Shown: positions 4,381-35,053 of the stretch, in pieces | How positions within the stretch are numbered: the stretch's first letter is position 1 | Layout: each line of letters begins with the position of its first letter | NCBI GenBank assembly: GCA_030536235.1 | Contig: JAUNQK010000004.1 | Coordinates: 1 to 36,468 of the forward strand | DNA: 36,468 nucleotides | Source of the DNA: Bacillota bacterium | GTDB lineage: Bacteria > Bacillota > Clostridia > Peptostreptococcales > Anaerovoracaceae | Direction of reading: 5' to 3' | Program-made: the position numbers and the translations under genes | Notes under the pieces: model-generated | Databases searched by the model: none | What the model was told of the DNA's origin: nothing | Seen by the model: only the letters and a program-made list of their open reading frames with translations

Positions 4381-5808
4381 ATGAAACTTATTTATGATGT
4401 TCACGAAAAACCAAAGGGAAAGGAAAACTTACTCTTCGCTTTCCAACAGATGATTGCTATCATGGCAGCTACACTGCTTGTTCCAATCATCATGACAAGT
4501 AATGGTCTTCCATCAGACCCAGCTGCAGCATTATTTGGTGCTGGTCTTGGTACACTTGTTTACTTATTATTCACAAAATTCAGCAGCCCAGTATTCCTTG
4601 GAAGTACATTCACATTCCTTGGTGCATACGCAGCATCCATTGGCTATGGCTATGGTTACTGGGGCGTAATCATCGGTGTTGGCTTTGCAGCACTTGTATA
4701 TGTAATCTTCGCAATTGTAATTAAGGCTTCTGGTTCAGCTTGGGTTAACAAGCTTATGCCAGCAGTAATTGCAGGCCCAATTGTAACACTCATCGGGCTT
4801 TCACTTTCCGGCACAGCAACAAGCTGGATGCAGACAAATGGTGGAGAAACTTACAGCTTAGTAACAATTCTTGTTGGTCTTATCACATTCTTTGCTATTG
4901 TTTATTCAACAGTAAAGGGTAGCAAGAATATGAAGCTGTTCCCATTCATTTATGGTATTGGAGCAGGTTACATTATTGCTTTAGTTCTTACACTTATCGG
5001 AAATGCTGCAAATATTCCTGTACTTCAGATTTTAAGCTTCGATTCATTCAAGGCTGCATTTTCACCATTTACATTTAAATCAATCGTAGATATTCCTAAG
5101 CTTTATATCATTCAGGCTGTAAAGACTCAGGGCCAGTATGAACCAATTACAGCAACAGCACTTGCAAACATTGCTCTTATCTATGCGCCAATTGCAGTTG
5201 TAGAACTTGCACAGCATGTTGGTGATCACAAGAACCTTAGCAACATTATTGGTAAAGACCTTATTACAGACCCAGGTCTTGATAAGACACTCCTTGGCGA
5301 TGGTATTGGATCACTCGTTGGTACAATCTTTGGTTCATGCGCTAACACAACATACGGCGAATCAATCGGTTGCGTTGCTATTACAGGAAACGCTTCCTCA
5401 CATACAATTAAGACAGCAGCATTTGGTTGCATGATTCTTTCATTCTTCACACCATTCGTTGCTCTTATCAACTCAATTCCTAAGTGTGTAATGGGTGGCG
5501 CTTGCGTAGCACTTTATGGTCTTATTGCTGTATCAGGTCTCCAGCTTCTCTCAAGAGTTGACCTCGGCGATAACAGAAACCTCTATGTAGTAAGTGCAAT
5601 TCTTGTTTGCGGTATTGGCGGTTTAGCATTGAACTTTGGCCATAACTCAGCAACAGGTGGTTCTTTAATCTCACTCACATCTCTTGCAGCTGCTTTAATC
5701 GTAGGTATTATTACAAGAAAGATTACAGGTGCAAAAGACGATACATTATCTTCTGATACTTTATCCGGAGCAGTAGAAGGAATGAAAAACGTAGACATGG
5801 ATAAATAG
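4381..5808 (+). CDS. pyrP: uracil permease (NCS2 / uracil-xanthine permease family)
   Basis: Polytopic membrane protein with NCS2-like segments (FQQMIAIMAATLLVP, NTTYGESIG). Good SD AAGGAGAAAAG upstream. Preceded by the PyrR attenuator and adjacent to upp and pyrR. Confidence 0.8.
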   Translation: MKLIYDVHEKPKGKENLLFAFQQMIAIMAATLLVPIIMTSNGLPSDPAAALFGAGLGTLVYLLFTKFSSPVFLGSTFTFLGAYAASIGYGYGYWGVIIGVGFAALVYVIFAIVIKASGSAWVNKLMPAVIAGPIVTLIGLSLSGTATSWMQTNGGETYSLVTILVGLITFFAIVYSTVKGSKNMKLFPFIYGIGAGYIIALVLTLIGNAANIPVLQILSFDSFKAAFSPFTFKSIVDIPKLYIIQAVKTQGQYEPITATALANIALIYAPIAVVELAQHVGDHKNLSNIIGKDLITDPGLDKTLLGDGIGSLVGTIFGSCANTTYGESIGCVAITGNASSHTIKTAAFGCMILSFFTPFVALINSIPKCVMGGACVALYGLIAVSGLQLLSRVDLGDNRNLYVVSAILVCGIGGLALNFGHNSATGGSLISLTSLAAALIVGIITRKITGAKDDTLSSDTLSGAVEGMKNVDMDK

Positions 5809-5822
5809 TTTCATCTAAAAAA

Positions 5823-5854
5823 TAGCCTCGACTTAAAAAGTCGGGGCTATTTAT
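5823..5854 (+). terminator. intrinsic terminator after the permease gene
   Basis: 11-bp stem TAGCCTCGACT / AGTCGGGGCTA (one G-U pair), loop TAAAA, then TTTAT. Confidence 0.7.
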
Positions 5855-5855
5855 A

Positions 5856-5864
5856 TGTTATAAT
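5856..5864 (+). promoter_or_regulatory. extended -10 box (TGTTATAAT) 9 nt upstream of the ATG at 5874
   Basis: TGTTATAAT, then atttatatc, then ATG. No SD. Confidence 0.35.
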
Positions 5865-5873
5865 ATTTATATC

Positions 5874-6527
5874 ATGGAAAAGCCAATAATTACCAAAGAA
5901 TGTGCCAAGGCACTTTCTGAGACAAAATTCTTAAATACTTATGATTTACAATATGCTGAAGGGGCACATTATTATATTGCCACAAGGCGTAATGTTGATA
6001 ATTTGACTGCGACAAAAAGCATAGAAGAACAAGATCATATGCTTCCAGATGCAGTCACTTGTTTTATTATAATAAAACAGAAGGGCGAAGAAGATTGTCT
6101 TCTTCTTCAATATGAATATAGATTCCCAATTGGACAGTATGTATTATGCCCACCTGCCGGAATAATAGACGCGGCAGATTGCGAAGGTGGTAATCCACTT
6201 ATCACAGCAACCATTAGGGAAATAAAAGAAGAAACCGGGTTAGATGTTAAGGATACAGATAAGATTTATGTTTTAAATGATTTGCTCTTTAGCACACCGG
6301 GGTTTACCGATGAATGTAACGCACTGGTTGTGGCAGAAATTGAACTAGACGATTTATCACAATTAAGCCATGAATATGCAGAAGCTACAGAATTATTTGG
6401 TGACTTCTTGCTGGTAACCAAAAAAGATGCGAAAAATATATTAAAGCGTGGAAGAGACCCAAAAGGGCACCATATTCCACTTTATGCATATGCAGCATTA
6501 AGTTATTTTGTTCTTAAAGAGGAATAG
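5874..6527 (+). CDS. NUDIX hydrolase (ADP-ribose pyrophosphatase-like)
   Basis: Nudix box core REIKEETGL preceded by PPAGIID...E. Confidence 0.8.
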   Translation: MEKPIITKECAKALSETKFLNTYDLQYAEGAHYYIATRRNVDNLTATKSIEEQDHMLPDAVTCFIIIKQKGEEDCLLLQYEYRFPIGQYVLCPPAGIIDAADCEGGNPLITATIREIKEETGLDVKDTDKIYVLNDLLFSTPGFTDECNALVVAEIELDDLSQLSHEYAEATELFGDFLLVTKKDAKNILKRGRDPKGHHIPLYAYAALSYFVLKEE

Positions 6528-6530
6528 AAT

Positions 6531-7628
6531 ATGAAAGTAGTTTTAGAACACTTAACAAAAAGATTTCCAAACAGAAATAAAAAGCAGGGTGGCTTCGTTA
6601 CAGCAGTTAGCGATGTAAATCTTGAATTGCCAGATGGAAAGCTGGTTGGTCTTCTTGGGCCATCGGGCTGTGGAAAGAGTACAATGCTAAACATGATTTG
6701 TGGTCTCGAAGATGCCACCGAAGGAAAAATTTATTTTGATCAAGAAGATGTAACAAATATTCCGCCTGAAAAACGCGGAGTAGGTATGGTATTTCAAAAC
6801 TATGCTTTGTATCCACATCTTACTGTAAGACAAAATATCATTTTCCCTCTTCAGAATTTAAAAGGTGATGCCAAGCTTAGCAAAGAAGAAATGAATGCTA
6901 AGGCAGAAGAGGTTGCAAAGCTTGTTCAAATAGAAGAATATATGGAAAGAAAACCAAGTGAACTTTCTGGTGGTCAGCAGCAGAGAGTTGCTATAGCAAG
7001 ATCACTTGTTAAGATGCCAAGAGTTCTTCTTTTAGATGAACCACTCTCCAATCTTGATGCAAGACTTCGTCTTCAAACAAGAGAAGAAATAAAACGAATT
7101 CAGGTAAAAACAGGCATTACAACAATCTTTGTTACTCACGACCAAGAAGAAGCAATGAGCATTACCGATGTAATGGTTGTAATGAAAGATGGTGTTATTC
7201 ATCAAGTTGGAAAACCTCAAGAAATTTATGATAATCCAATTAATCTTTTCGTTGCAAAGTTTCTTGGTACTCCGGCAATTAATGTTTTTGATGGAGAGGT
7301 TAAAAACGGAAAGCTTTATATCGGAGAAGATTGCATAAAAGATATAAAAGGTATTTCAGAGCAAAAGGTATACGTTGGTATTAGGCCTGAAGGTTTCCTT
7401 ATTAATGATGCCGGAACTTTCCATTGCAGATTAAAAGGCGTAGAAGTAATGGGCCGCGATGTGAATGTTGTCTTTACAAACCCAAATCATGACGGTTATT
7501 GCAGAGCTATTATTCATAACGATTATGCAGGTTCGGCTAATAAGAAAGACATTTGCTTCGATTTAAAAGATAACAAGATATTAATTTTCTCAAAAGAAAA
7601 CGAGAAACGTTTATATGAAGAAGAATAA
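6531..7628 (+). CDS. ABC transporter ATP-binding protein (MalK/UgpC/MsmX-type, carbohydrate importer)
   Basis: Walker A GPSGCGKST, signature LSGGQQQRVAIARSL, Walker B LLLDEPLSNLD, and a C-terminal MalK-like regulatory domain. Confidence 0.9.
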   Translation: MKVVLEHLTKRFPNRNKKQGGFVTAVSDVNLELPDGKLVGLLGPSGCGKSTMLNMICGLEDATEGKIYFDQEDVTNIPPEKRGVGMVFQNYALYPHLTVRQNIIFPLQNLKGDAKLSKEEMNAKAEEVAKLVQIEEYMERKPSELSGGQQQRVAIARSLVKMPRVLLLDEPLSNLDARLRLQTREEIKRIQVKTGITTIFVTHDQEEAMSITDVMVVMKDGVIHQVGKPQEIYDNPINLFVAKFLGTPAINVFDGEVKNGKLYIGEDCIKDIKGISEQKVYVGIRPEGFLINDAGTFHCRLKGVEVMGRDVNVVFTNPNHDGYCRAIIHNDYAGSANKKDICFDLKDNKILIFSKENEKRLYEEE

Positions 7629-8496
7629 TAAAGCGTGGTTATACCTGCTTCCAGCTATCGCCTTTTTAGGCGTGTTCATGATTTATCCTCTTGTGGATGT
7701 TTTGGTCTATTCATTTGAAGAAGGCTTCAATTTTGCGTCCCAAACTTTCTCAGGGGTTGGTATTTATAATTTCCAATATGTTTTAAGAGACCCGTATTTT
7801 CTTCAGGCTCTTAAAAACACTTTCATATTGGTTGTTATTACTGTGCCTATTTCAACCGGATTTGCACTTCTTGTATCACTTGCTTTAAATTCTATTTCTA
7901 AATTTAAAGAACTTTTCCAAACTGTTTACTTCTTGCCTTATGTAACAAATACTTTGGCAGTAGGTATTGTTTTTATGGTTCTGTTTAAAAAGACTGCTTA
8001 TTCAGAAGGGCTTATTAATTTACTTATTACTTTCTTTGGCGGAAGCTCTGTTGATTTTATTGACGGCCCGTATTGGGCAAAGATGCTTGTTCTTTGCATC
8101 TATACAATTTGGATTGTTCTGCCGTTTAAAGTGCTAATTCTTACAAGTGCACTTGCTTCTGTAAATCAGGATTATTACAACGCAGCAAAAATTGATGGAA
8201 CATCAAAATGGAGGATATTTACAAAGATAACTCTTCCTATGATTTCACCAATGATTTTTTACTTAGTTATCACAGGCTTCATTGGGGCCTTTAAAGCATA
8301 TAGCGATGCAGTAGCATTGTTTGGCGTAGATTTAAATGCTGCCGGAATGAACACCATGGTAGGCTATGTATATGACATGCTCTATGGTAATAGCGGTGGT
8401 TATCCATCTTATGCATCGGCCGCTGCGCTTATCCTATTTGCAATAGTATTAACCATTACATGCATTAACCTTTTGGTAAGTAGAAAGAAAGCATGA
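7615..8496 (+). CDS. carbohydrate ABC transporter permease (MalF/UgpA-like)
   Basis: Six predicted TM helices. EAA loop YYNAAKIDGTSKWRIFTKITLP. Confidence 0.85.
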   Translation: MKKNNKAWLYLLPAIAFLGVFMIYPLVDVLVYSFEEGFNFASQTFSGVGIYNFQYVLRDPYFLQALKNTFILVVITVPISTGFALLVSLALNSISKFKELFQTVYFLPYVTNTLAVGIVFMVLFKKTAYSEGLINLLITFFGGSSVDFIDGPYWAKMLVLCIYTIWIVLPFKVLILTSALASVNQDYYNAAKIDGTSKWRIFTKITLPMISPMIFYLVITGFIGAFKAYSDAVALFGVDLNAAGMNTMVGYVYDMLYGNSGGYPSYASAAALILFAIVLTITCINLLVSRKKA

Positions 8497-9329: not shown

Positions 9330-10903
9330 AAAAGATACTTGCACTTCTTCTTGCAGCCTCGATGCTCTTTAGCTTAACAGCTTGCCATGGGCAGCGTGGT
9401 CTAAATGCTTTTGAAATGCCAGAGGAATTTGACGAAAGCAAAGAATATAACATTACATTTTGGTCTAAGAATGATACCAACAAAACTCAGGTTGAAATTT
9501 ACAACAAGGCTATAAGTGATTTTGAAAAGTTATATCCAAACATTCATGTAAATATGCGTATCTATACAGATTACACATTAATTTACAATGATGTTATTAC
9601 TAATATTTCTACAAACACAACACCTAATGTTTGCATTAGCTATCCTGATCATATAGCGACATATTTAACTGGTGTTAATATTGTTGCGCCTCTTGAAGAG
9701 TTAATGGATAATGCCGATTATGGTCTTGGCGGAAACAAAGTAAAATTTGATAGCCCTGCTAAATCGCAAATGATTCTGAAATTCCTTGAAGAAGGTGAAA
9801 TTAACGGAAGCTATTATGCATTGCCTTTCATGCGCTCGACAGAAGCCTTGTATATTAATAAGACATATGTTGAACGCCTTGGTTATTCGGTTCCTGATAA
9901 AGTAACTTGGGATTGGATTTGGGAAGTAGCTGATGCTGCTATGGCTAAAAATGAAGACGGCACATTTAAGCTGAATGGCAAGAATGTTATGATCCCGTTC
10001 ATTTATAAGTCAACGGATAACATGATGATTCAAATGCTTAAGCAAAAGGGTGCAGATTATTCGACGCCAGAAGGTGAAATTAAAATCTTTAACGATGACA
10101 CAAAGGATATTCTTTATACCGTTAGAGATCACGCTGAAAAGGAATCATTCTCGACATTTAAGATTTCAAGTTACCCGGCAAACTTTTTAAATGCCGGTGA
10201 ATGTATTTTCGCAATAGACTCTACTGCAGGTTCAACCTGGATGGGAACAGAGGCACCTCTTTCAGATATTTGTTCTGATGATATCGCAGACCCATTCGAA
10301 ACTGTTGTAAGGGTTATCCCGCAATTTGATGTTGAAAACCCGGCCATGATTTCTCAGGGCCCGTCAATTTGTATTTTTAATAAAAACGATAGCGGAGAAG
10401 TTTTAGCATCTTGGCTCTTTGCACAGTTCCTTTTGACAAATGATGTTCAAATAGCTTATGCAAAGACAGAAGGCTATGTTCCTGTAACATCAAAGGCCCA
10501 AGAAACCGAAGCTTACCTTCAGTATTTGGCAGATTCCGGAATCGATAATAACGAGCATTATTCAATAAAAATAGACGCAACCAAGCTTTTATTGGAAAAT
10601 ACTGACAATACATTTGTGACCCCGGTATTTAATGGCTCTGCTTCTTTAAGAAATGCTGCTGGCCAAATGATTGAAAATGTTACAAAATCGGTTAGAAGAA
10701 AGCAGACAGTAGATGAAGCCTATATGGATAAGCTTTATAGCGATATCAATTCGCTATACCGTTTAGACCAGGCTGATACATCAAACACAGATAAAGATAG
10801 CTTAGGGCCGCTTCCGGCAGAATCTAAGGCTTTACTGACAGGTCTGATAGTTGTATGGATTTTCATAATTCTGTACTTTTGTGTTAAAAACCGCAAGAAA
10901 TAG
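9326..10903 (+). CDS. ABC transporter extracellular solute-binding lipoprotein with an additional C-terminal TM helix
   Basis: Lipobox LFSLTAC. Family-1-SBP-like sequence of about 480 aa, then LLTGLIVVWIFIILYFCVKNRKK at the C-terminus. ATGA overlap with the upstream permease gene. Confidence 0.8.
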   Translation: MKKILALLLAASMLFSLTACHGQRGLNAFEMPEEFDESKEYNITFWSKNDTNKTQVEIYNKAISDFEKLYPNIHVNMRIYTDYTLIYNDVITNISTNTTPNVCISYPDHIATYLTGVNIVAPLEELMDNADYGLGGNKVKFDSPAKSQMILKFLEEGEINGSYYALPFMRSTEALYINKTYVERLGYSVPDKVTWDWIWEVADAAMAKNEDGTFKLNGKNVMIPFIYKSTDNMMIQMLKQKGADYSTPEGEIKIFNDDTKDILYTVRDHAEKESFSTFKISSYPANFLNAGECIFAIDSTAGSTWMGTEAPLSDICSDDIADPFETVVRVIPQFDVENPAMISQGPSICIFNKNDSGEVLASWLFAQFLLTNDVQIAYAKTEGYVPVTSKAQETEAYLQYLADSGIDNNEHYSIKIDATKLLLENTDNTFVTPVFNGSASLRNAAGQMIENVTKSVRRKQTVDEAYMDKLYSDINSLYRLDQADTSNTDKDSLGPLPAESKALLTGLIVVWIFIILYFCVKNRKK

Positions 10904-13840: not shown

Positions 13841-14934
13841 TAGACAACATAGTATTACTAATTCCATCACTTAATCCAGACAAGAAACTTATTAGAACTG
13901 TAGAAGGTATGATTGCCGCAGGGTTCACTAAGATTCTTGTAGTTAATGATGGCTCAAATAGTTTCCATAGATGGCCTTTTGAAGAAATCGCCGGCTTTGG
14001 TGAAGTAACCTGTATTGGTTATGAAGAAAATAAGGGAAAGGGCCATGCATTAAAATATGGTTTTAAGTATATTCTTGAAAACTATGATAACGTTGCTGGC
14101 GTATTAACCGCTGATGGCGACGGGCAACATATGCCGGCTGATTGCATAAATGTGGCAAACGAAATGCTTGCTAAAAATGAATGCGTTTTTGGATGCAGAG
14201 ATTTTAGCGACCCATCTGTTCCAAGACGTAACAAGATGGGAAATAAAATTAGTATCTTTGCATATAATTTCTTATGCGAAATTAAAATGTCGGATACACA
14301 AACAGGTTTAAGAGCAATTCCTGTTCGTTACCTTAAAGAATTTATAGACGTTGAAGGCGAGAGATTTGAATATGAAACAAATACTCTTATCTACATGAAA
14401 AATCATGATATGCCTTTTAACGAGGTAAAGATTGATACAGTATATGAAAGTGATAGTAATGAAGGGTCTCACTTTAGAGTAGTTGAAGATTCTATAAGAA
14501 TCTATAAGCCACTTATTAAAGCGGGCGGCCCAAGGTTTTTACTCTTTACTTTGGGTTCGCTTCTTGCGACATTAATTGACCTTGCAATCTTTACAGTGCT
14601 CACTCACTTAATAGCAAGAACCTCAGAAGAATTTTTAGCAATTATTGCGTCTGTATTTATTGCTACATATACTGCAAGATTCTTCTCTGCACTGTTTGAC
14701 TATTACTTTAGCCTAAAGTTTGTTTTTAATAAGAATAAGAATCTTAAGAAGGGCGGTTTACTTAGATACTTTGTATTAATGCTGGCTCAGGCCGGCGTTT
14801 CCGCAGCGTTAGTAGCTGTTATTTGTTTCATTTTCGGAATTACAGGTGTAGTAAGAACTGCAATTAAAATCGTTATTGATACTTGTTTATTCTTTGTAGG
14901 ATACAGAATTCAAAGAGAGTGGGTATTTAAATAA
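13837..14934 (+). CDS. family 2 glycosyltransferase (GtrB/DPM1-like) fused to a GtrA-like membrane domain
   Basis: LLIPSLNP..., TADGDGQH DxD region and SDTQTGLR, then four C-terminal TM helices with a GtrA-like pattern. ATGA overlap with the upstream gene. Confidence 0.8.
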   Translation: MIDNIVLLIPSLNPDKKLIRTVEGMIAAGFTKILVVNDGSNSFHRWPFEEIAGFGEVTCIGYEENKGKGHALKYGFKYILENYDNVAGVLTADGDGQHMPADCINVANEMLAKNECVFGCRDFSDPSVPRRNKMGNKISIFAYNFLCEIKMSDTQTGLRAIPVRYLKEFIDVEGERFEYETNTLIYMKNHDMPFNEVKIDTVYESDSNEGSHFRVVEDSIRIYKPLIKAGGPRFLLFTLGSLLATLIDLAIFTVLTHLIARTSEEFLAIIASVFIATYTARFFSALFDYYFSLKFVFNKNKNLKKGGLLRYFVLMLAQAGVSAALVAVICFIFGITGVVRTAIKIVIDTCLFFVGYRIQREWVFK

Positions 14935-15827
14935 TGCTTGGAACAACTTTTTACTTTGATTGGGAAATAAATTTAATACTTGCGATTCAAGCACATTTTG
15001 GAAAAATTGGAGTTTTAATTTCTCAGGTTTGCTCGCTGCTTGGCCAGCAATACCCATTAGTTTTATTGGTATGCATCTTGTATTTTGCCATTGATAAGAA
15101 AATGGGCAAAAGAATTTGTTTGAATTTATTAACAGTTCTTGTGTGGTGTCCAATGATTAAAAATGTGACATTTAGACGCAGACCATATTTTGATAATGAG
15201 AATATCAAAATATTAATTGCTGCAGAGCCATCAGCAGATGCTTATGATATGGTTGCTCAGGGCTTTTCTTTCCCGAGTGCACATTCTGCTTGCTCTGTTG
15301 CTGCTTATCCGGCAATGACACGCTGCTCAAAGAAAAAGTGGCTTAGAGTGCTTGGATGGGTTCTTCCGTTTATTATAGGAATTTCACGTTTTTGTGTTGG
15401 AGCTCATTATCCAACAGATGTAATCGTTGGTTGGGCTTTAGGAATATTTGTAGCATTTATTATTCCGTTTCTGGGGTCAAAATTAAAGAATGAAAATTAT
15501 TTATACTTGATAATTTTGCTGACAGCGATTCCGGGGCTTTTCTATTGCCAAACCACAGACTACTTTAGCGGATTTGGATTACTTCTTGGATTTTTCTTGG
15601 GAAGCCTCTTCGAAGAAAAGTATGTTAATTTTGAAAAACCAAAATCAATCAAATATGCAATTTTAAGAGTTGCACTTGGAATAGGAGTTTTCTTATTATT
15701 CGCACAAGGAATTAAATTTATTTTAGGTGAAGGAATAGTAGTAAGAGTAATCAGATATACTGTTGGTGCATTTATTGCTTTAGGGGTATTTCCTATATTA
15801 TTTAAAAAGTTTGAAAAGGAGAATTAA
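14934..15827 (+). CDS. PAP2-family phosphatase (undecaprenyl-diphosphatase-like)
   Basis: PAP2 motifs KNVTFRRRP, SFPSAHS and SRFCVGAHYPTDV. TAATG overlap with the upstream gene. Confidence 0.85.
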   Translation: MLGTTFYFDWEINLILAIQAHFGKIGVLISQVCSLLGQQYPLVLLVCILYFAIDKKMGKRICLNLLTVLVWCPMIKNVTFRRRPYFDNENIKILIAAEPSADAYDMVAQGFSFPSAHSACSVAAYPAMTRCSKKKWLRVLGWVLPFIIGISRFCVGAHYPTDVIVGWALGIFVAFIIPFLGSKLKNENYLYLIILLTAIPGLFYCQTTDYFSGFGLLLGFFLGSLFEEKYVNFEKPKSIKYAILRVALGIGVFLLFAQGIKFILGEGIVVRVIRYTVGAFIALGVFPILFKKFEKEN

Positions 15828-20290: not shown

Positions 20291-20463
20291 TAAAGACATC
20301 TTAGGTCTGAGGTTGAAAGTCCAAGCCAGCTATGGGCAAAGGGATCCACGTAAGCGCATAGCAAGAGGCATGCGTGATCATGGCATAGCTTAGAAGTAAG
20401 TCCTCGGAAAATCCGGTAAAGGCAAGTGTGGGGTCAAAGACCTGGTCAGCTAAGATGTTTTTA
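20291..20463 (+). ncRNA. candidate structured RNA / cis-regulatory element of unknown class upstream of a MATE gene
   Basis: 14-bp closing helix (20291-20304 / 20450-20463) with nested helices 20306-12/20402-08 and 20328-34/20384-90. A hairpin spans 20343-20379 and a small hairpin 20432-42. GC content is clearly above the flanks by eye. The only ORF across it is an antisense 61-aa ORF. Confidence 0.4.
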
Positions 20464-20474
20464 TAGATTTTGAA

Positions 20475-21854
20475 ATGTTCAAACAAAAATACAGTACAAA
20501 AGAAATTTTTGAAGAGCTTCCTATTAACAAATCTCTCTTTACTTTATCGCTTCCGGCTATTATAGGACAGCTAATAACACTTATTTATAACATAGCAGAT
20601 ACATTCTTTATTGGGCAGGTAAATAACCCATTAATGATTACTGCAACATCATTGGCATTCCCAATTTTCGCAATGACTGCACCGGTTTCTATTATTACTG
20701 GTACAGGTGGCGGAACATTGATTTCCAGATTGATGGGTGTTCATCAAGATGATGAAGCAAGAAGAGTATCAGCATATAGTATTTGTGTAAATATTGCTTT
20801 GGGGCTTATTTACTCTTTATTAGTATTTGCATTTTTAGAACCTCTTATTGTATTTCTTGGTGCAACAAAGGGTTCGGAAACTTTTATTTATACCAAACAA
20901 TACATGACATGGGTAGTAATTTTAGGTGGTCTTCCAACTATTGTTACAAACTCTATGGCAAATATGCTTAGAAGTGTAGGCCATTCAAAAGAGGCAGGTT
21001 TTGGAGTTGCCTTTGGCGGAATCATGAATATAGTATTAGACCCTATATTTATGTTCGTTCTTTTGCCTGATGGAATGGAAGTTGTTGGCGCAGGTGCTGC
21101 AACAATGATTTCTAACTGCGCTTCAGCTTTATATTTTGCAATTAAGATTTTCCAATTGCAAAAATCTACCCCGCTTAATTATTCATTTAAGTATGGTCTG
21201 CCAAGCAAAACAAATATGTTTAAGGTGTTTGCGGTTGGGCTTCCTTCAGCAACAACTACTTTGCTCTTTGATGTAAACAACATGCTTCTTAATAAGCTTA
21301 TGTCAGCATATGGAGATATTGCAGTTGCTGCTATCGGTATGACAGTTAAACTTGAAAGATTCTCACTTAATACTTGCATCGGTATCTGCCTTGGTATGAC
21401 ACCACTTGTTGCATACAATTATTCTTGCCGGAATTACAGCCGAATGAAAGACTATGTAAATACAACAAGAAGATGGGGCTTAATTATTAGTTTAATTAGC
21501 ATTGCTTTATATGAAATTTTTGCCGCTCCATTTGTAAGAATCTTTATTAAAGATGCTGCGACAGTAGCTCTTGGTGCTGCTTTTCTTAGGAGAAGAGCAA
21601 TTGCTTCCATATTTATGTTCTTAAACTTTTATATGGTGCATTTCTTCCAGGGCATTGGATCGGGCAAACACACATTCTGGTTATCGGTTATCCGTTACGC
21701 ATTTTTATGTATACCGGCACTGTTTGTAATGAATACGTGCTTTGGTATGTACGGGCTTCCAATGGCTCAGGCTGTTGGTGATAGCATTAGTGCTGCAATT
21801 TGTGCAGTTGTTTATACACGGTTCATTAAGAAAAACATTGATTGCGGAGAATAA
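20475..21854 (+). CDS. MATE-family efflux transporter
   Basis: 12-TM protein with a typical MATE N-terminus (LSLPAIIGQLITLIYNIADTFFIGQ). No SD upstream of the ATG. Confidence 0.85.
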   Translation: MFKQKYSTKEIFEELPINKSLFTLSLPAIIGQLITLIYNIADTFFIGQVNNPLMITATSLAFPIFAMTAPVSIITGTGGGTLISRLMGVHQDDEARRVSAYSICVNIALGLIYSLLVFAFLEPLIVFLGATKGSETFIYTKQYMTWVVILGGLPTIVTNSMANMLRSVGHSKEAGFGVAFGGIMNIVLDPIFMFVLLPDGMEVVGAGAATMISNCASALYFAIKIFQLQKSTPLNYSFKYGLPSKTNMFKVFAVGLPSATTTLLFDVNNMLLNKLMSAYGDIAVAAIGMTVKLERFSLNTCIGICLGMTPLVAYNYSCRNYSRMKDYVNTTRRWGLIISLISIALYEIFAAPFVRIFIKDAATVALGAAFLRRRAIASIFMFLNFYMVHFFQGIGSGKHTFWLSVIRYAFLCIPALFVMNTCFGMYGLPMAQAVGDSISAAICAVVYTRFIKKNIDCGE

Positions 21855-25089: not shown

Positions 25090-26106
25090 ATGGACTTAGG
25101 AAGTATTTCTGATATTCCGTTATATTACTATATAGCTTTAGTATTATTGCTATTAGGGGGAGTGTATTTTGCATCTGCAGAGACAAGTTTAGCCTCTGTG
25201 AATAAAATACGTATGATTTCTGATGCGGATGGTGGCAGCAAAAAGGCATCAAAAGTTTTGTATGTTTTAGACAATTTTGATGATGCTTTAACAGCACTTT
25301 TAATTGGAAACAATGTTATGCACATTGCTTTTTCTTCACTTTCAACTGTTTGTGTAACAAAGTTGTGGGGAAATGCCGCTGTTAGTATTGCAACCTTCAT
25401 AACGACTTTCATAGTTTTCATTTTTGCAGAGATGATTCCAAAGGCTTATGCCAAGGCGTGCTCTGAAAGAATTGCTCCAAATGTGGCCCCTTCATTAATA
25501 TTAATAATGAAGATACTTGTTCCATTAATAGCATTCTTTAAGGTGGTAACTAATTTAATTGTTAAACTTTTCCCTGCAGCAAAGGATGAAGATTTAACAG
25601 TAACAGAAGATGAGCTTTCAGATATTATTGAAAGCATTGACGAAGAAGATTGTATAGATGAAGATACAACAGAGCTTCTTCAGTCTGCTCTTGAATACAC
25701 AAAAAACACAGCAAAAGATATTCTTGTTCCGTGGGATAGAGTTGTAACTGTTGGCGAATGGATGGACGAAGACGAGATTTATAAAATCATCGACGAGAAC
25801 CATTACAGCAGATTACCGGTTCTTGATAAGAACGGTAATATCTTAGGTGTAATTCATATTAGAAAATTCTTAAAAGCAAAGATTAGACAAAGAAAAACTC
25901 TTAAGTCTAGATCGATGCTTGATAAACCATACTACATTCCAACAACATTGCCTATTGATGATATATTGCCAGATTTATCTGCCCATAGAACTCATATGGC
26001 ATTTGTTAAAAATGGTTCCAATCAAGTAATAGGAATTATTACGGTAGAAGATATTTTGGAACAGCTTGTTGGAGAAATATACGATGAAGAGGAGGTGCAA
26101 GAATAG
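25090..26106 (+). CDS. CNNM/DUF21 + CBS-pair membrane protein (hemolysin/CorB-like), lacking a CorC_HlyC domain
   Basis: DUF21 TM block (ETSLASVNKIRM..., LIGNNVMHIAF, EMIPKAYA) and a CBS pair (ILVPWDRVVTV ... ITVEDILEQLVGEIYDE). The protein ends right after the CBS pair. Confidence 0.8.
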   Translation: MDLGSISDIPLYYYIALVLLLLGGVYFASAETSLASVNKIRMISDADGGSKKASKVLYVLDNFDDALTALLIGNNVMHIAFSSLSTVCVTKLWGNAAVSIATFITTFIVFIFAEMIPKAYAKACSERIAPNVAPSLILIMKILVPLIAFFKVVTNLIVKLFPAAKDEDLTVTEDELSDIIESIDEEDCIDEDTTELLQSALEYTKNTAKDILVPWDRVVTVGEWMDEDEIYKIIDENHYSRLPVLDKNGNILGVIHIRKFLKAKIRQRKTLKSRSMLDKPYYIPTTLPIDDILPDLSAHRTHMAFVKNGSNQVIGIITVEDILEQLVGEIYDEEEVQE

Positions 26107-27344
26107 TGCTTCCTTATATCGCAATAATTATTTGTTTATTCTTCTCGGCTTTATTTTCCGGGGCAGAGATTGCTTACGCTTCTGCAAGTGAGGTTAAGCT
26201 TAGAAAAACAAATGCAAAGAGAGCTCATAATATCTTTGTAAATTATGAGACTGCTTTAATAAGCATACTTGTTGGTAATAACTTAGTAAATATCGCTTCA
26301 TCAGCACTGGCAACAGTGATTGCAATTTCGCTTCTTGGCGAAAATGGTGCATGGCTTGCCAGCATAATTATGACAATTGTCATAATTATCTTTGGAGAGA
26401 TTAGCCCTAAGCTTATTGCAAATAAGAACCCGGAAGGCTTTGCAAAACTTGTTGCATGGCCGATTAGTATTTGGATGATTATTACTAAGCCTGTAGTAAT
26501 CTTCGCAAATGCTTTTGTAAAACTTGTATCTAACCTTTGGAGAAAACAGGTTGTAGATGATGCTGTAACAGAAGACGATTTAGAAACTATTTTCGATACT
26601 ATCGAAGAAGAAGGTGTCGTTGATGAAGAAACAGCAGATTTATTCCAGGGAACATTAGATTTCGATGACACTCCTGTTTATGAAATAATTACTCCAAGAG
26701 TAGATATGATGGCCATCGACATCGATGATAGTAATGAGGCTAATCTTGAAAAAATCTTAAAATGCAAGTTTAGCAGACTTCCTGTTTATAGAGAAACACC
26801 AGATCATATTGTTGGTATGCTTCATACAACTCAGGTCTTAAGAGATTTGGCAGCTGGCGACGATCTGAATATTCAGGAAATGATGATGGAGGCGCATTTT
26901 GCATATAAGACGACTCCTCTAGCCGATGTTTTTGAGTTAATGCAAAAGACATCATGCCATATGGTAATCGTTACAGATGAATATGGCGGAACCATGGGAT
27001 TTGTTACTATGGAAGATGTTTTAGAGCAGCTGGTTGGAGAAATCTTTGATGAAAAGGATGTTGTAGACGAAGAATTTGTCGAACTTTCAGAGGATAAATT
27101 CGAGGTTGATGGAGACATGCGCCTTGAAGACTTCTTTGACGAACTTGATATGGACGACGAAGAAGATGAAATAGGTGATGATAATGCAACCATCGGTGGA
27201 TGGGCTATGGAAAAAATTGAAGGTTATCCAAAGCTTGGTGATACCTTTGATTACAAGAATCTTCACTTTGAAATAACAGAATGTGAAGAAATGAGAGTAT
27301 TAACACTTAGTGTTATTGTAAATGATAATAATCAGTTATCGTAA
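26106..27344 (+). CDS. CNNM/DUF21 + CBS-pair + CorC_HlyC protein (CorC/hemolysin family, putative Mg2+/divalent cation efflux)
   Basis: GTG start overlaps the TAG of the previous gene. Motifs AEIAYASASEVKL, GEISPKLIA, a CBS pair, then a C-terminal transporter-associated domain (ATIGGWAMEKIEGYPKLGDTFDY). Confidence 0.85.
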   Translation: MLPYIAIIICLFFSALFSGAEIAYASASEVKLRKTNAKRAHNIFVNYETALISILVGNNLVNIASSALATVIAISLLGENGAWLASIIMTIVIIIFGEISPKLIANKNPEGFAKLVAWPISIWMIITKPVVIFANAFVKLVSNLWRKQVVDDAVTEDDLETIFDTIEEEGVVDEETADLFQGTLDFDDTPVYEIITPRVDMMAIDIDDSNEANLEKILKCKFSRLPVYRETPDHIVGMLHTTQVLRDLAAGDDLNIQEMMMEAHFAYKTTPLADVFELMQKTSCHMVIVTDEYGGTMGFVTMEDVLEQLVGEIFDEKDVVDEEFVELSEDKFEVDGDMRLEDFFDELDMDDEEDEIGDDNATIGGWAMEKIEGYPKLGDTFDYKNLHFEITECEEMRVLTLSVIVNDNNQLS

Positions 27345-30974: not shown

Positions 30975-30998
30975 AGCGAGCCATTCGGCTCGCTTTTA
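30975..30998. terminator. bidirectional intrinsic terminator between convergent genes
   Basis: Stem AGCGAGCC / GGCTCGCT with loop ATTC, flanked by A-rich (30965-74) and T-rich (30995-98) tracts. Confidence 0.7.
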
Positions 30999-33533
30999 TA
31001 TTAGTTTTACTATATCTTTAAACTTAGTTTTTTCCGGAGCATTTTCTTCTAAAATTCTTCGAATTTCTTTTATGGCTTGATTGACTTCATATTCGAGCTC
31101 TCGGTTAGACATTCTAAGAAGCCCGGCTCTTAAAGCACTAAGCTGTATAAGGCCATCTGATGTCGCAACCTTTACTGAATAGTTTTTGCCTATTTCGTGA
31201 GCAAGGCTTTCGATATATGCGTCGGCGCTTTCACCTTCTTTTGTGTAAACAACATGAATGCCATGGTCATCTTCTTTAGTGCCCAGATTATCTTTAACCT
31301 TATAGCCATCAAATACCAAACATACCTCACAATCTTTATATGCTCTGTAGTTAATAAGCATATCAATTAGTTTTTGCCTTGCGTTTGCAATTTTTTCTTC
31401 TTTAAGGCTTTCCCATGCAAAGATAATGTTATAACCATCTACTATTAAGTATTCTTTTTTAATAGTAGTTTGTTTCTTTTTATAGTTTCCGCCAAAGTCT
31501 ACTGTTACACTTGCAATCTGAGGTCTTTTGATTTCGCCAAACTCTCTTTGCATAATTGCCTCGAGCTCTTTTTCGTCAAAATCTATATTGCCACTTCTAA
31601 CTTTTGGTGCATGCAGCACTTCGAGTTTGTCATCTTTTATTTCGATTCCGCTATCAAGATGAACAAAATCAGGAACCTTATTCCACTTTACATTGACTCC
31701 GGCACCATGAGAACAGAATACTGAATCTGCTGTGTTTTCTACATCACGATCTGCCTCGTAAGCTATTTCTTCTAAGACTTTTGCTGTGTTGTGGCAAGGG
31801 AAGTAACCTGCAAATGTGCAAGAAATATGGCCTCTACCTTTTGTGTAAGAAAGTAAATCTGTTAAGTATAATTGAAGTTCTGAAACAGGGCCGGCGCCAA
31901 CAAGTTCAATTGTGTCTCCTAAATCAATTGGGGCCTCGAAGCTGCAAGACATAGCCTTGCAATCGCTAATAGCGCGGCCAATATATTCTGATGGAACATC
32001 GAGGGTAAAATCGTAATAAGGTTCAAGCAGAATATTTTGCGCAGACATAAGACCTTGTCTAACTGCGCGATATGTTGCCTGTCTAAAGTCTCCGCCTTCG
32101 GTGTGTTTTAGATGAGCACGTCCAGCGATAAGACTAATTTTCATATCGGTAATAGGAGAACCTGTTAAAACACCAAGGTGGGTTTTCTCTGCTAAATTTG
32201 TAAGGACAAGCCTTTGCCAATTCAAATCAAGATCATCTGTGCTGCAAGCTGATGTGAAAATTAATCCGGTGCCTGGTTCGAGTGGCTCCATTAAGAGATG
32301 AACTTCTGCGTAGTGTCTTAATGGTTCGAAATGCCCCATGCCGATAATAGGTTCTGCAATTGTTTCTTTATAAACAATTTTACCTTTATCAATTTCGACG
32401 TCCATATTGTAACGTTCGGAAATTAATTCTTTTAATACATCAATTTGAACCTCGCCCATTAATTGTGCTTCTATTTGCTTAAGCTGGCTATTCCAAACGA
32501 TGCGAAGCATAGGGTCTTCTTCTGCTAAGAGATTTAATTTTTGCATAGCAGTAAAATTATCAACGCCATTAGGCGGAATAATTCTGTAAGATAATACCGG
32601 CTCAAGAATTGGAAGGTCGCCATCGTTTTCTGCACCAAGGCCTTGCCCTGCATCTGTGTTATTTAAACCTGTAAGTGCGTAAACACTGCCGGCTTCGGCT
32701 TTATCTACTGCAGAAAATTTTACGCCAGAATATGAGCGAATTTGCGTAATCTTTTCTTCGCCAATTAGGTCTCTTGGCGCAAGAGTGCCTCCTGTAAGTT
32801 TAATCCAAGTTAAACGAACGCCATCATCGGCATGTGTAATTTTATATACTTTTGCTTTAAATTCATTAGGATAGTTTCTGACCTTGGTATAAGTTTTTAG
32901 TCCATTTAAAAACTTATCTACACCTTGAAGCTTTAAAGCAGAACCTTTAAAACATGGGAAAAGTTTTCTTTTTAAGATAAGGTCTTGAATGGTTTCTGTT
33001 TTTAATGAACCGGTTTCAAGATATTCAGAAATTGCATCTTCGTCTAATTCTGCAATCTGTTCATAATTGATATTATTAAAGTCAACAAAGCCAGTCTTGA
33101 AATGAAGGTTAAGTTCACTCAAAACGTCTTTGTCTGTCAAATCCATTTTATTGATCCATACAAATGTTGGGATATGGTAACGTTTTAGTAGATCCCAAAG
33201 GGTTTGGGTATGCGCCTGAATTCCGTCTGGCCCACTAATAACAAGGATGGCATAGTCTAAAACTGAAAGGGTTCGCTCCATTTCGGCTGAAAAATCCATG
33301 TGCCCTGGGGTGTCAAGAAGGTTAATCTCTAAATCGTCAATATCAAAAATAGCCTGCTTTGAAAAGATAGTAATCCCACGCTGTCTTTCAATCAGGAAAT
33401 TGTCTAAATAAGCATCTTTATGGTCAACACGGCCTAAATTCTTGATTTTGCCGCTCTTGAAAAGCATAGCTTCGCTCATTGTTGTTTTCCCTGCATCAAC
33501 ATGAGCAAGTATGCCAATTACATTTCGTTTCAT
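30996..33533 (-). CDS. fusion protein: TetM/TetO-like EF-G-family translational GTPase + C-terminal YacP/Rae1-type NYN endoribonuclease domain
   Basis: 845 codons from MKRNVIGILAHVDAGKTT (G1), with ERQRGITI, DTPGH (G3) and NKMD (G4). Similarity to TetM continues through domains II-V to about aa 640. The last ~150 aa (31000-31457) carry LIVDGYNIIFAW, CLVFDG, TKEGESADAYIESLA, VATSD and SNRELEYEV, matching B. subtilis Rae1/YacP. No frameshift or stop between the parts. Confidence 0.85.
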   Translation of the reverse strand: MKRNVIGILAHVDAGKTTMSEAMLFKSGKIKNLGRVDHKDAYLDNFLIERQRGITIFSKQAIFDIDDLEINLLDTPGHMDFSAEMERTLSVLDYAILVISGPDGIQAHTQTLWDLLKRYHIPTFVWINKMDLTDKDVLSELNLHFKTGFVDFNNINYEQIAELDEDAISEYLETGSLKTETIQDLILKRKLFPCFKGSALKLQGVDKFLNGLKTYTKVRNYPNEFKAKVYKITHADDGVRLTWIKLTGGTLAPRDLIGEEKITQIRSYSGVKFSAVDKAEAGSVYALTGLNNTDAGQGLGAENDGDLPILEPVLSYRIIPPNGVDNFTAMQKLNLLAEEDPMLRIVWNSQLKQIEAQLMGEVQIDVLKELISERYNMDVEIDKGKIVYKETIAEPIIGMGHFEPLRHYAEVHLLMEPLEPGTGLIFTSACSTDDLDLNWQRLVLTNLAEKTHLGVLTGSPITDMKISLIAGRAHLKHTEGGDFRQATYRAVRQGLMSAQNILLEPYYDFTLDVPSEYIGRAISDCKAMSCSFEAPIDLGDTIELVGAGPVSELQLYLTDLLSYTKGRGHISCTFAGYFPCHNTAKVLEEIAYEADRDVENTADSVFCSHGAGVNVKWNKVPDFVHLDSGIEIKDDKLEVLHAPKVRSGNIDFDEKELEAIMQREFGEIKRPQIASVTVDFGGNYKKKQTTIKKEYLIVDGYNIIFAWESLKEEKIANARQKLIDMLINYRAYKDCEVCLVFDGYKVKDNLGTKEDDHGIHVVYTKEGESADAYIESLAHEIGKNYSVKVATSDGLIQLSALRAGLLRMSNRELEYEVNQAIKEIRRILEENAPEKTKFKDIVKLI

Positions 33534-33539
33534 GCTATA

Positions 33540-33548
33540 ATTATACCA
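33540..33548 (-). promoter_or_regulatory. extended -10 box (TGgTATAAT) 6 nt upstream of the GTPase-NYN ATG
   Basis: Minus strand reads tTGGTATAAT, then tatagc, then ATG (33533). No SD. The whole divergent intergenic gap is only 30 bp. Confidence 0.35.
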
Positions 33549-34598: not shown

Positions 34599-34952
34599 AT
34601 GTTTTTTATGAATGGCGAGCACAAGCATGAAATTAAATCAGACCTTAAAGGTGGTTTTGGTGATCTTGATTTCAAATATATTGTTCCAACCGATATGATG
34701 TATGGTGCTGGAAACTTCTATGCTGAAGTTACCTTTAAACCTGGCCAGTCAATCGGGCTGCACGACCATGTAGACAACTTCGAAATCTACTATGTTCTTA
34801 AGGGCGAAGCTACAGTTGTCGATGGCAATGAAGAACGTGTGTTAAAGCCGGGAGAATCAGAAATTTGTGCCAATGGTGAGTTCCACTCAATAGCTAATAA
34901 ATCTAATGAAGATACAGTTATTTTGGCAATAATTCTTAACAAAGCTAAGTAG
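34599..34952 (+). CDS. cupin domain protein
   Basis: 117 aa with the cupin pattern G.SIGLHDHVDNFEIYYVLKG...L.PGE......GE.HSI. SD AGGAGGAA. Confidence 0.7.
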   Translation: MFFMNGEHKHEIKSDLKGGFGDLDFKYIVPTDMMYGAGNFYAEVTFKPGQSIGLHDHVDNFEIYYVLKGEATVVDGNEERVLKPGESEICANGEFHSIANKSNEDTVILAIILNKAK

Positions 34953-35020
34953 ATTGCTTCGCTTCGCTCGCAATGACACACATCATAGTCATTGCGAGGG
35001 CCGTCAGGCCCGTGGCAATC
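34952..35020. repeat. second complete palindromic repeat unit ([16 protein letters not shown]-type)
   Basis: Left arm GATTGCTTCGCTTCGCTCGCAATGACA (34952-78) and right arm GTCATTGCGAGGGCCGTCAGGCCCGTGGCAATC (34988-35020). The left arm matches 26/27 with 2374-2400. Confidence 0.85.
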
Positions 35021-35026
35021 TAGTTG

Positions 35027-35053
35027 GATTGCTTCGCTTCGCTCGCAATGACA
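35027..35053. repeat. solo left arm of the same repeat family
   Basis: GATTGCTTCGCTTCGCTCGCAATGACA is identical 27/27 to 34952-34978. No inverted partner follows it. Confidence 0.85.

Follow-up and report, generated by a model that had tools for sequence, protein, structure and literature searches.

We analyzed a stretch of 36,468 nucleotides from a Bacillota bacterium of the family Anaerovoracaceae (assembly GCA_030536235.1, contig JAUNQK010000004.1; the whole stretch is hereafter called the window). One of its genes encodes a translational GTPase resembling EF-G and TetM that is joined, within one polypeptide, to an endoribonuclease domain of the Rae1/YacP type. The gene is a single open reading frame (ORF) of 845 codons plus a TAA stop on the minus strand (30996-33533, with the ATG at 33533 and the stop at 30998-30996). 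The best reading of this protein is that of a GTP-dependent factor that would bring its own nuclease to the ribosome. In its specific form, to which we give a probability of about 0.45, the GTPase of this housekeeping member of the EF2 family would sense the stalled ribosome and bring the tethered Rae1 nuclease to its mRNA.

The fusion described here is a further member of an architecture that is already recorded and uncharacterized. Tet proteins of ten Clostridiales species were reported by Atkinson 2015 to carry a YacP-like NYN domain, and Additional file 8 of that study lists Ruminococcus albus 7, Eubacterium rectale ATCC 33656, Clostridium cellulolyticum H10 and others (PMC4342817). Matelska 2017 also described a TetM-like-NYN_YacP fusion, seen in some Clostridia, without assigning it a role (PMC5499597). 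The architecture is therefore not new: both studies had recorded it in silico before the gene was picked out of the window by a model reading the DNA alone (hereafter the original prediction).

One polypeptide with two conserved catalytic centers

The complete coding sequence is supported by the ORF itself, by its Pfam domains and by full-length homologues of the same architecture. A longer form starting from a GTG (33692) was ruled out because the N termini of the homologues, MKxxVxGILAHVDAGKT, match the ATG at 33533. The best 120 database homologues share 52-100% identity with the window protein, have the same five Pfam domains and are ~840-910 residues long; the nearest database protein to that of the window has 89% identity. 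All 75 loci with enough sequence, each from a different genome, carry the fusion as one unbroken ORF. Split copies are occasional (603+241, 419+436 and 591+264 residues; among them L098 3212-5726 and L100 3677-6311) and were recognized from short NYN-containing entries on long contigs. Because their break points differ, we read them as probable frameshifts or pseudogenes, with no conserved two-gene form. The unbroken loci and the differing break points together rule out an assembly artifact or two separate genes. The central claim of the original prediction, a TetM/EF-G-like GTPase fused to a Rae1/YacP NYN domain in one ORF, is thus confirmed by Pfam, by PDB matches and by all 75 loci. Every motif that it quoted is present in the ORF, and the stop or frameshift between the two halves that it had named as grounds for doubt occurs in none of these loci.

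The N-terminal part of the protein has the five domains of an elongation factor (all features of the gene lie on the minus strand unless stated otherwise). The G domain (residues 1-216; 32886-33533) is recognized by Pfam GTP_EFTU (residues 5-216, E-value 4.3e-47), by motif conservation and by the alignment to TetM, in which its G' region is ~22 residues shorter. A domain II beta-barrel follows (residues ~224-305; 32619-32864), with strands at 226-300 in the AlphaFold2 (AF2) model at a predicted local distance difference test score (pLDDT) of ~90; many homologues match PF22042 (EF-G_D2). Domain III (residues 311-382; 32388-32603) corresponds to Pfam EFG_III (311-382, E-value 1.3e-08), domain IV (residues 384-499; 32037-32384) to EFG_IV (384-499, E-value 1.1e-15), with support from the conservation profile, and domain V (residues 502-578; 31800-32030) to EFG_C (502-582, E-value 1.5e-15). 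With these three Pfam models above cut-off and the barrel seen in the AF2 model, the order of domains II, III, IV and V is as in EF-G.

The GTPase motifs are all present: G1 AHVDAGKT, G2 T55 (RGITI), G3 DTPGH78, G4 NKMD and G5 GSA. We assessed residue conservation in a set of 113 homologous sequences and in 75 independent species genomes. K16, T55, D74, H78, K129 and D131 are invariant in 75 out of 75 species sequences and conserved in the homologue set. The best PDB sequence match is TetM (3J9Y; residues 5-578, E-value 6e-73, 249 bits). Structures of EF-G align end to end with the N-terminal 578 residues at ~220 bits and are the top structural matches in Foldseek (E-value 1e-49, ~690 columns). 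From sequence, we classify the GTPase body as an EF-G/TetM paralogue of the EF2 (EF-G/Tet) family, for which ribosome-stimulated GTP hydrolysis is predicted.

Domain IV is the best conserved stretch of the whole protein. Both of its tip loops, GHFEPLRHYAEV (residues 400-411) and AGRAHLKHTEGGDFR (residues 470-484), are nearly invariant. Loop III of TetM, YYSPVSTPADFR, aligns to AHLKHTEGGDFR of the fusion, so that the YSPVS loop of TetM is replaced by HLKHTEGG, which is also nearly invariant within the fusion family. The tip histidine of EF-G aligns to H474, and the GGRG insert of EF-G loop I is missing. When taken alone, domains IV-V score 61 bits against EF-G and 50.5 bits against TetM. That domain IV is the most conserved region argues for a specific contact with the decoding center.

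The C-terminal part is a Rae1/YacP-type NYN (PIN-like) endoribonuclease domain (residues 695-839; 31017-31451). Pfam NYN_YacP (PF05991) matches residues 696-839 with an E-value of 4.6e-42, covering positions 1-150 of the 166 of the profile; its 144.3 bits, against a gathering threshold of 24.6, bear out the assignment that the original prediction had made. The C terminus also aligns to residues 3-147 of B. subtilis YacP/Rae1 (5MQ8; E-value 3e-20, 40% identity). Four acidic residues, D699, D742, D771 and D793, align with the B. subtilis Rae1 motifs VDGYN, VFDA, ETAD and TSD and are invariant in all 113 + 75 sequences, as expected from the prediction that the acidic active-site positions are kept. 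On the comparison of these sequences, we regard strong purifying selection on both catalytic centers of the fusion as established.

The two parts are separated by ~113 residues, which form a conserved extension and a tether. The family-specific extension (residues 579-645; 31599-31799), with the pattern PCHN...ADSVFCSHGAGxNVKW...MHLDSG, is defined by its invariance and by the full-length AF2 model (mean pLDDT 83.5), where it appears as one helix and four short strands with pLDDT 82-88. C580, C607, H609, H625 and W617 are invariant in the 113 + 75 sequences, and the two cysteines and two histidines may form a putative CCHH metal site. No Pfam family matches the extension at E <= 10, and the structure search gave no fold match. 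Among 1.84 billion representative proteins it was found only in this architecture, with 660 matches, in every full-length one of which it lies at ~580-700. When piece 576-650 was folded alone, the model was poor (pLDDT 66.6). We therefore read the extension as packing on the GTPase body in the models and not as an autonomous domain.

The tether that follows (residues 646-694; 31452-31598) is predicted to be flexible, with pLDDT < 50 at 648-658 and 664-691. It holds a conserved helix, DEKELEAIMxREFGPIKRP, and then a variable stretch rich in R, K, P, E and A. The length of the 645-695 region is held at 46-57 residues in all homologues. The original prediction had described a linker of ~50 residues between the two enzymes: this length fits the tether, and the connection as a whole is more than twice as long because it includes the structured extension.

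A vertically inherited chromosomal gene

The C-terminal 262 residues served as the query against a set with a single genome for each GTDB species. A relative is encoded in at least 557 of these species-level genomes, including Oscillospiraceae, Faecousia, Oscillibacter, Flavonifractor, Intestinimonas, Ruminiclostridium, Blautia, Roseburia and other Lachnospiraceae. The fusion was also recovered, apart from this census, in Monoglobus and Agathobacter rectalis. A neighbor-joining tree of 75 fusion proteins follows taxonomy, with clades composed of all Lachnospiraceae-labelled sequences, of Oscillibacter, Flavonifractor and Intestinimonas, and of Faecousia and its allies. The guanine-cytosine (GC) content of the gene is 38.0%, compared with 36.7% for the window. 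We consider it established at the level of gene phylogeny that the fusion gene behaves as an old, vertically inherited gene of the housekeeping kind. Its conservation extends to hundreds of dominant gut Clostridia species (among them Blautia, Roseburia, Agathobacter, Flavonifractor, Oscillibacter, Faecousia and Ruminococcus), and the protein probably belongs to the core of their translation quality control.

Carriage by mobile elements was considered and rejected. The matches in the plasmid collection come from pieces of the Monoglobus and Agathobacter chromosomes. In PLSDB, several 'plasmid' records are in fact chromosome fragments bearing rlmB, sigH, tuf, nusG, ribosomal protein genes and secA, among them C. 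difficile NZ_CP149721.1 and Monoglobus NZ_OY725736/OY725739; in the Monoglobus assembly there are at least 18 such 'plasmids', which range from 2 kb to 518 kb. The 'phage' match examined, MT835563.1 ('UNVERIFIED: Bacteriophage sp.', from a fecal virome), has the fusion at 5397-8024 flanked by genes for an NAD(P)HX dehydratase and a diaminopimelate epimerase (DapF), and from these genes looks like bacterial chromosomal DNA.

We found no conserved neighbor of the fusion gene across 78 loci, and the conserved operon or helix-turn-helix partner on which Matelska 2017 had remarked was not seen in them either. The most frequent neighbor is a PsiE-family gene, which in 16 of the 78 loci, all within a Faecousia/Oscillospiraceae subgroup, immediately follows the fusion gene on the same strand. 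It encodes a small membrane protein (Pfam 28.4 bits against a cut-off of 23.9; L017 3360-3821 and L098 5827-6282). Elsewhere the neighbors are ordinary chromosomal genes, such as those for threonyl-tRNA synthetase (ThrRS), hibernation-promoting factor (HPF), transporters and aminotransferases. At one locus (L082), hpf (9381-9914) lies divergently beside the fusion gene and a gene with a YlmH-type S4 domain (14564-15304) lies 2 kb downstream; both are translation-related, and the arrangement is not conserved elsewhere.

In the window, the fusion gene is convergent with an MBOAT/AlgX-like pair and divergent from a gene for an FMN-dependent dehydrogenase and a cupin gene. One base past its stop lies a GC-rich hairpin with a perfect 8-bp stem, AGCGAGCC-ATTC-GGCTCGCT, and U-tracts on both strands (30975-30994, no strand assigned), which looks like a bidirectional terminator common to the fusion and the AlgX-like gene. 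On the other side, the gene is without a Shine-Dalgarno sequence (33531-33548), and TGGTATAAT, an extended -10-like box recognized by its match to the consensus, ends 7 nt before the ATG (33540-33548). Because the Shine-Dalgarno sequence is missing and the box is so close to the start, this arrangement hints at a candidate promoter of a leaderless, monocistronic mRNA. The same arrangement is repeated in the closest relatives (L081 and L082/83). A Shine-Dalgarno sequence is present in 54 of 74 other orthologues, many of which have a TGnTATAAT-like box further upstream. A search of Rfam detected no known RNA element near the fusion gene.

Other features were noticed in the window. A raiA RNA motif (RF03072) at 20296-20458 on the plus strand scores 136.5 bits against a gathering threshold of 101.3 and sits in the gap that immediately precedes a MatE efflux gene (20475-21854). 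After the cupin gene, a 37-nt direct repeat occurs in two copies (34942-34978 and 35017-35053), which are 89% identical and 75 nt apart and give rise to a minus-strand ORF that is spurious and repeats the peptide 'CHCERSEAI'. The window and L081 are also syntenic (at 25090-27344 and 5112-7351, respectively), with the tandem CNNM/CBS/CorC pair, the MatE genes and the pair of FMN-dehydrogenase and cupin genes in common. This synteny with the 78%-identical relative (GCA_045616685.1) places the window in the same little-sampled lineage.

Proposed surveillance of stalled ribosomes and alternative readings

Rae1 is a translation-dependent mRNA endonuclease whose cut falls 12 nt upstream of the A-site codon, at the tail of ribosomes that have stalled or collided (PMC12407103), and a 2026 preprint reports that it acts upstream of trans-translation on collided ribosomes (PMC13622287). 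The model of 2017 that docked Rae1 in the A site was withdrawn by the same group in 2025. The notion of an A site common to Rae1 and TetM, on which the original prediction built its mechanism, rests on that withdrawn model: the mechanism is right in spirit and its premise is outdated. Because Rae1 cuts away from the A-site codon, an A-site GTPase would be sterically compatible with a nuclease tethered elsewhere. The revised mechanism of Rae1 thus helps the present reading by analogy, as it would remove the clash of domain IV and nuclease both in the A site.

The sequence of events that we favor would be the following. The GTP-bound five-domain body would dock at the GTPase center of the ribosome, and the conserved tip of domain IV would enter the region of the decoding center and A site. 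Such docking would select ribosomes with an accessible A site, that is, stalled or collided ones. It would also raise the local concentration of the NYN domain, which would hang from the conserved C-terminal extension on its ~50-residue tether. By analogy with Rae1, the nuclease would then cut mRNA outside the A site, either behind the stalled ribosome, at its trailing edge, or between ribosomes that have collided. Hydrolysis of GTP would release the factor, and the truncated mRNA would feed trans-translation. The binding state of the ribosome, the RNA target, the position of the cut and the gating by GTP are steps that we infer.

In favor of a GTPase that takes a Rae1 nuclease to stalled ribosomes are the invariant catalytic residues, the tether of constrained length, an NYN domain corresponding to the whole of Rae1, the housekeeping distribution, and the promoter-like box and terminator of its own. 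Several points weigh against it. The nuclease might have rRNA or tRNA, and not mRNA, as its target. The GTPase center lies far from the mRNA exit, and the reach of a ~50-residue tether to a Rae1-type cut site is in question; from a collided ribosome, the tether may instead reach the mRNA between the ribosomes. TetM binds post-translocation (POST) ribosomes with an empty A site and EF-G binds rotated pre-translocation (PRE) ones, and the fusion may recognize either state. The presence of a stand-alone rae1 in fusion-bearing genomes was assessed at the rlmB-adjacent slot of two genomes. Finally, full-text literature searches turned up no experimental work on any member of the fusion family, in agreement with the remark of the original prediction that no characterized member was known.

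It is also possible, and we put this forward tentatively, that the fusion is the Rae1 of its lineage in Oscillospirales, Lachnospirales and Monoglobales, namely a single-chain, GTP-controlled surveillance factor of the A site that cuts mRNA and triggers trans-translation. The reference setting of stand-alone rae1 is the cysS-mrnC-rlmB-yacP-sigH cluster of C. difficile, and the rlmB-yacP-sigH neighborhood was found around the fusion gene in none of 78 loci. In Monoglobus pectinilyticus and Vescimonas fastidiosa, unlike in C. difficile and Bacillus, yacP/rae1 is missing from the slot adjacent to rlmB; the Monoglobus records cover part of the genome, the chromosome record and plasmid 1 being absent from them. 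The slot holds a YmdB-like phosphoesterase in one of the two and a 718-residue hypothetical protein in the other (L087 5965-8339; L088 5947-8887). When C. difficile Rae1 was used as the query, the homologues retrieved were all from Peptostreptococcaceae. The empty slot is compatible with the fusion being the Rae1 of these organisms. The fusion is not mentioned in PMC12407103 or PMC13622287, and the census of Rae1 in the latter relied on a hidden Markov model (HMM) without a length filter, which probably counted fusions as ordinary Rae1.

If the fusion is indeed the Rae1 of its lineage, it would be the first known case of a translational GTPase bearing an mRNA-decay nuclease of its own and would offer a natural experiment on how Rae1-type nucleases are targeted to ribosomes. 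The means by which Rae1 recognizes ribosomes that have stalled or collided have yet to be explained (PMC12407103; PMC13622287), and the fusion hard-wires a docking GTPase to Rae1. The family is therefore a direct handle on this targeting.

A different substrate is less likely. The nuclease might act on 16S/23S rRNA near the factor-binding site or on the A-site tRNA, and serve the inactivation, dismantling or quality control of ribosomes (in stress, stationary phase or sporulation) or rRNA maturation. NYN_YacP was first predicted to take part in rRNA/tRNA maturation, stand-alone yacP is clustered with mrnC and rlmB, and one orthologue adjoins hpf. In structures 3J9Y and 4V5F, the C terminus of EF-G and TetM lies near domain IV and the decoding center. 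However, a tether of ~50 residues would be needless for a target beside the docking site, the adjacency to hpf is seen in one lineage only, and the substrates established by experiment for a Rae1 homologue are all mRNAs (PMC12407103).

We find it more doubtful that the GTPase anchors the protein passively to the ribosome, or plays an EF-G-like part of its own, so that the nuclease works without gating by GTP and the fusion merely co-localizes an ordinary Rae1. Such an arrangement would agree with the predicted flexibility of the tether in the AF2 model and with the fact that stand-alone Rae1 works without a GTPase in B. subtilis (PMC12407103). It accounts poorly for two observations: all residues for binding and hydrolysis of GTP, including His78, are invariant in every sequence examined, and the constrained length of the tether, its conserved helix and the extension argue for a defined geometry.

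There is little to recommend the view that the fusion is a tetracycline ribosomal-protection protein of the TetM/O/W class with an accessory RNase, resistance being its primary role, perhaps assisted by the RNase as Atkinson 2015 suggested. The affinity to this class is real: the top NCBIfam model is tet_protect, the top PDB sequence match is TetM, the Prokaryotic Genome Annotation Pipeline (PGAP) names orthologues TetM/W/O/S family ribosomal-protection proteins, and the HMMs of Atkinson 2015 put the fusion proteins in the Tet subfamily (PMC4342817). Yet the scores fall far short of the cut-offs, with 398.7 bits against 775 for tet_protect (NF012153), 275.7 against 1100 for TetM/W/O/S (NF033148) and 245 against 1420 for Tet(M). 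Domain IV loop III, with its YSPVS/Pro509 tip, is reported to dislodge tetracycline (Donhofer 2012 and Li 2013, as cited by Atkinson 2015), and in the fusion this drug-displacing YSPVS is replaced by HLKHTEGG. Domains IV-V are slightly closer to EF-G than to TetM. The neighbors are chromosomal housekeeping genes, and the 'plasmid' and 'phage' records of the fusion are chromosome fragments or bacterial contamination. Moreover, inheritance of the fusion is vertical, while the Tet subfamily is discontinuous in a way that suggests multiple horizontal transfers (Atkinson 2015).

The resistance label given by annotation pipelines is thus, judging from these comparisons, very probably wrong. The labels that we encountered are tetracycline-resistance protein, 'GTP-binding protein' and 'NYN domain-containing protein', as the original prediction had anticipated in expecting mislabelling. 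The NCBI pipeline names A. rectalis WP_306784676.1 (L084 6120-8921) and HJA36329.1 'TetM/TetW/TetO/TetS family tetracycline resistance ribosomal protection protein'. Orthologues under this name reach about half of the family cut-off and are without the drug-displacing loop, so that mislabelled fusions are likely false-positive resistance genes in gut resistome surveys.

Least credible of all is a toxin, or an anti-phage effector of abortive infection, that would switch translation off when triggered, an anti-phage shut-off being among the roles listed in the original prediction: NTPase-nuclease fusions are common in defense systems and a BrnT/CopG toxin-antitoxin pair lies beside the A. rectalis copy, but no PADLOC family matched at E <= 0.01, no conserved immunity, sensor or partner gene adjoins the fusion in 78 loci, the phylogeny is vertical, the presence broad and not patchy, the GC content native and the context housekeeping, and the fusion was not found on genuine phages or mobilizable plasmids in the plasmid and phage collections.

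Comparison with known systems

The closest counterparts are the Tet-like GTPase-NYN_YacP fusions of Atkinson 2015 and Matelska 2017, which have the same architecture and belong to the same class; the A. rectalis orthologue was recovered among our homologues, and there is no difference in kind. With TetM/TetO (3J9Y, 4V6V) the fusion shares the five-domain translational GTPase, 28% identity in the structural alignment and a loop I without the GGRG insert. It differs in scoring below all HMM cut-offs for ribosomal-protection proteins, in its loop III with HLKHTEGG in place of YSPVS and in a shorter G' insert. TetM ends with a short C-terminal helix, whereas the fusion has a C-terminal addition of 260 residues and is chromosomal and vertically inherited. 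EF-G has the same domain order, provides the top Foldseek matches, has the domain IV tip histidine that corresponds to H474 and scores slightly higher over domains IV-V. In contrast to EF-G, the fusion is without the loop I GGRGQ and much of G', reaches 258 bits against an equivalog cut-off of 659 and has a nuclease.

A functional likeness may be proposed to SmrB of E. coli, Cue2/NONU-1 of eukaryotes and MutS2 of B. subtilis, which bring a nuclease to stalled or collided ribosomes for rescue. MutS2, with its ATPase and SMR domain, resembles the fusion in joining an NTPase to a nuclease-type domain. These proteins have the unrelated SMR fold, are recruited via an N-terminal hook, ubiquitin binding or a MutS clamp, and are not known to use a translational GTPase. 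Hbs1-Dom34/Pelota, like other A-site probes delivered by translational GTPases, is comparable in that a translational GTPase probes the A site of the stalled ribosome (Atkinson 2015). Unlike the fusion, Hbs1 belongs to the EF1 family, delivers a separate protein and has no covalent nuclease.

The nuclease itself is compared most directly with Rae1/YacP of B. subtilis (5MQ8/5MQ9, PF05991). The two share the whole fold, the same acidic residues and the motifs VDGYN, VFD, TKExE(S/T)AD and ATSD. Rae1 is a stand-alone protein of ~170 residues, whereas the NYN domain of the fusion is the C terminus of an 845-residue GTPase encoded at unrelated loci. Compared with Rae1, the fusion therefore has a ribosome-docking module built into the protein itself.

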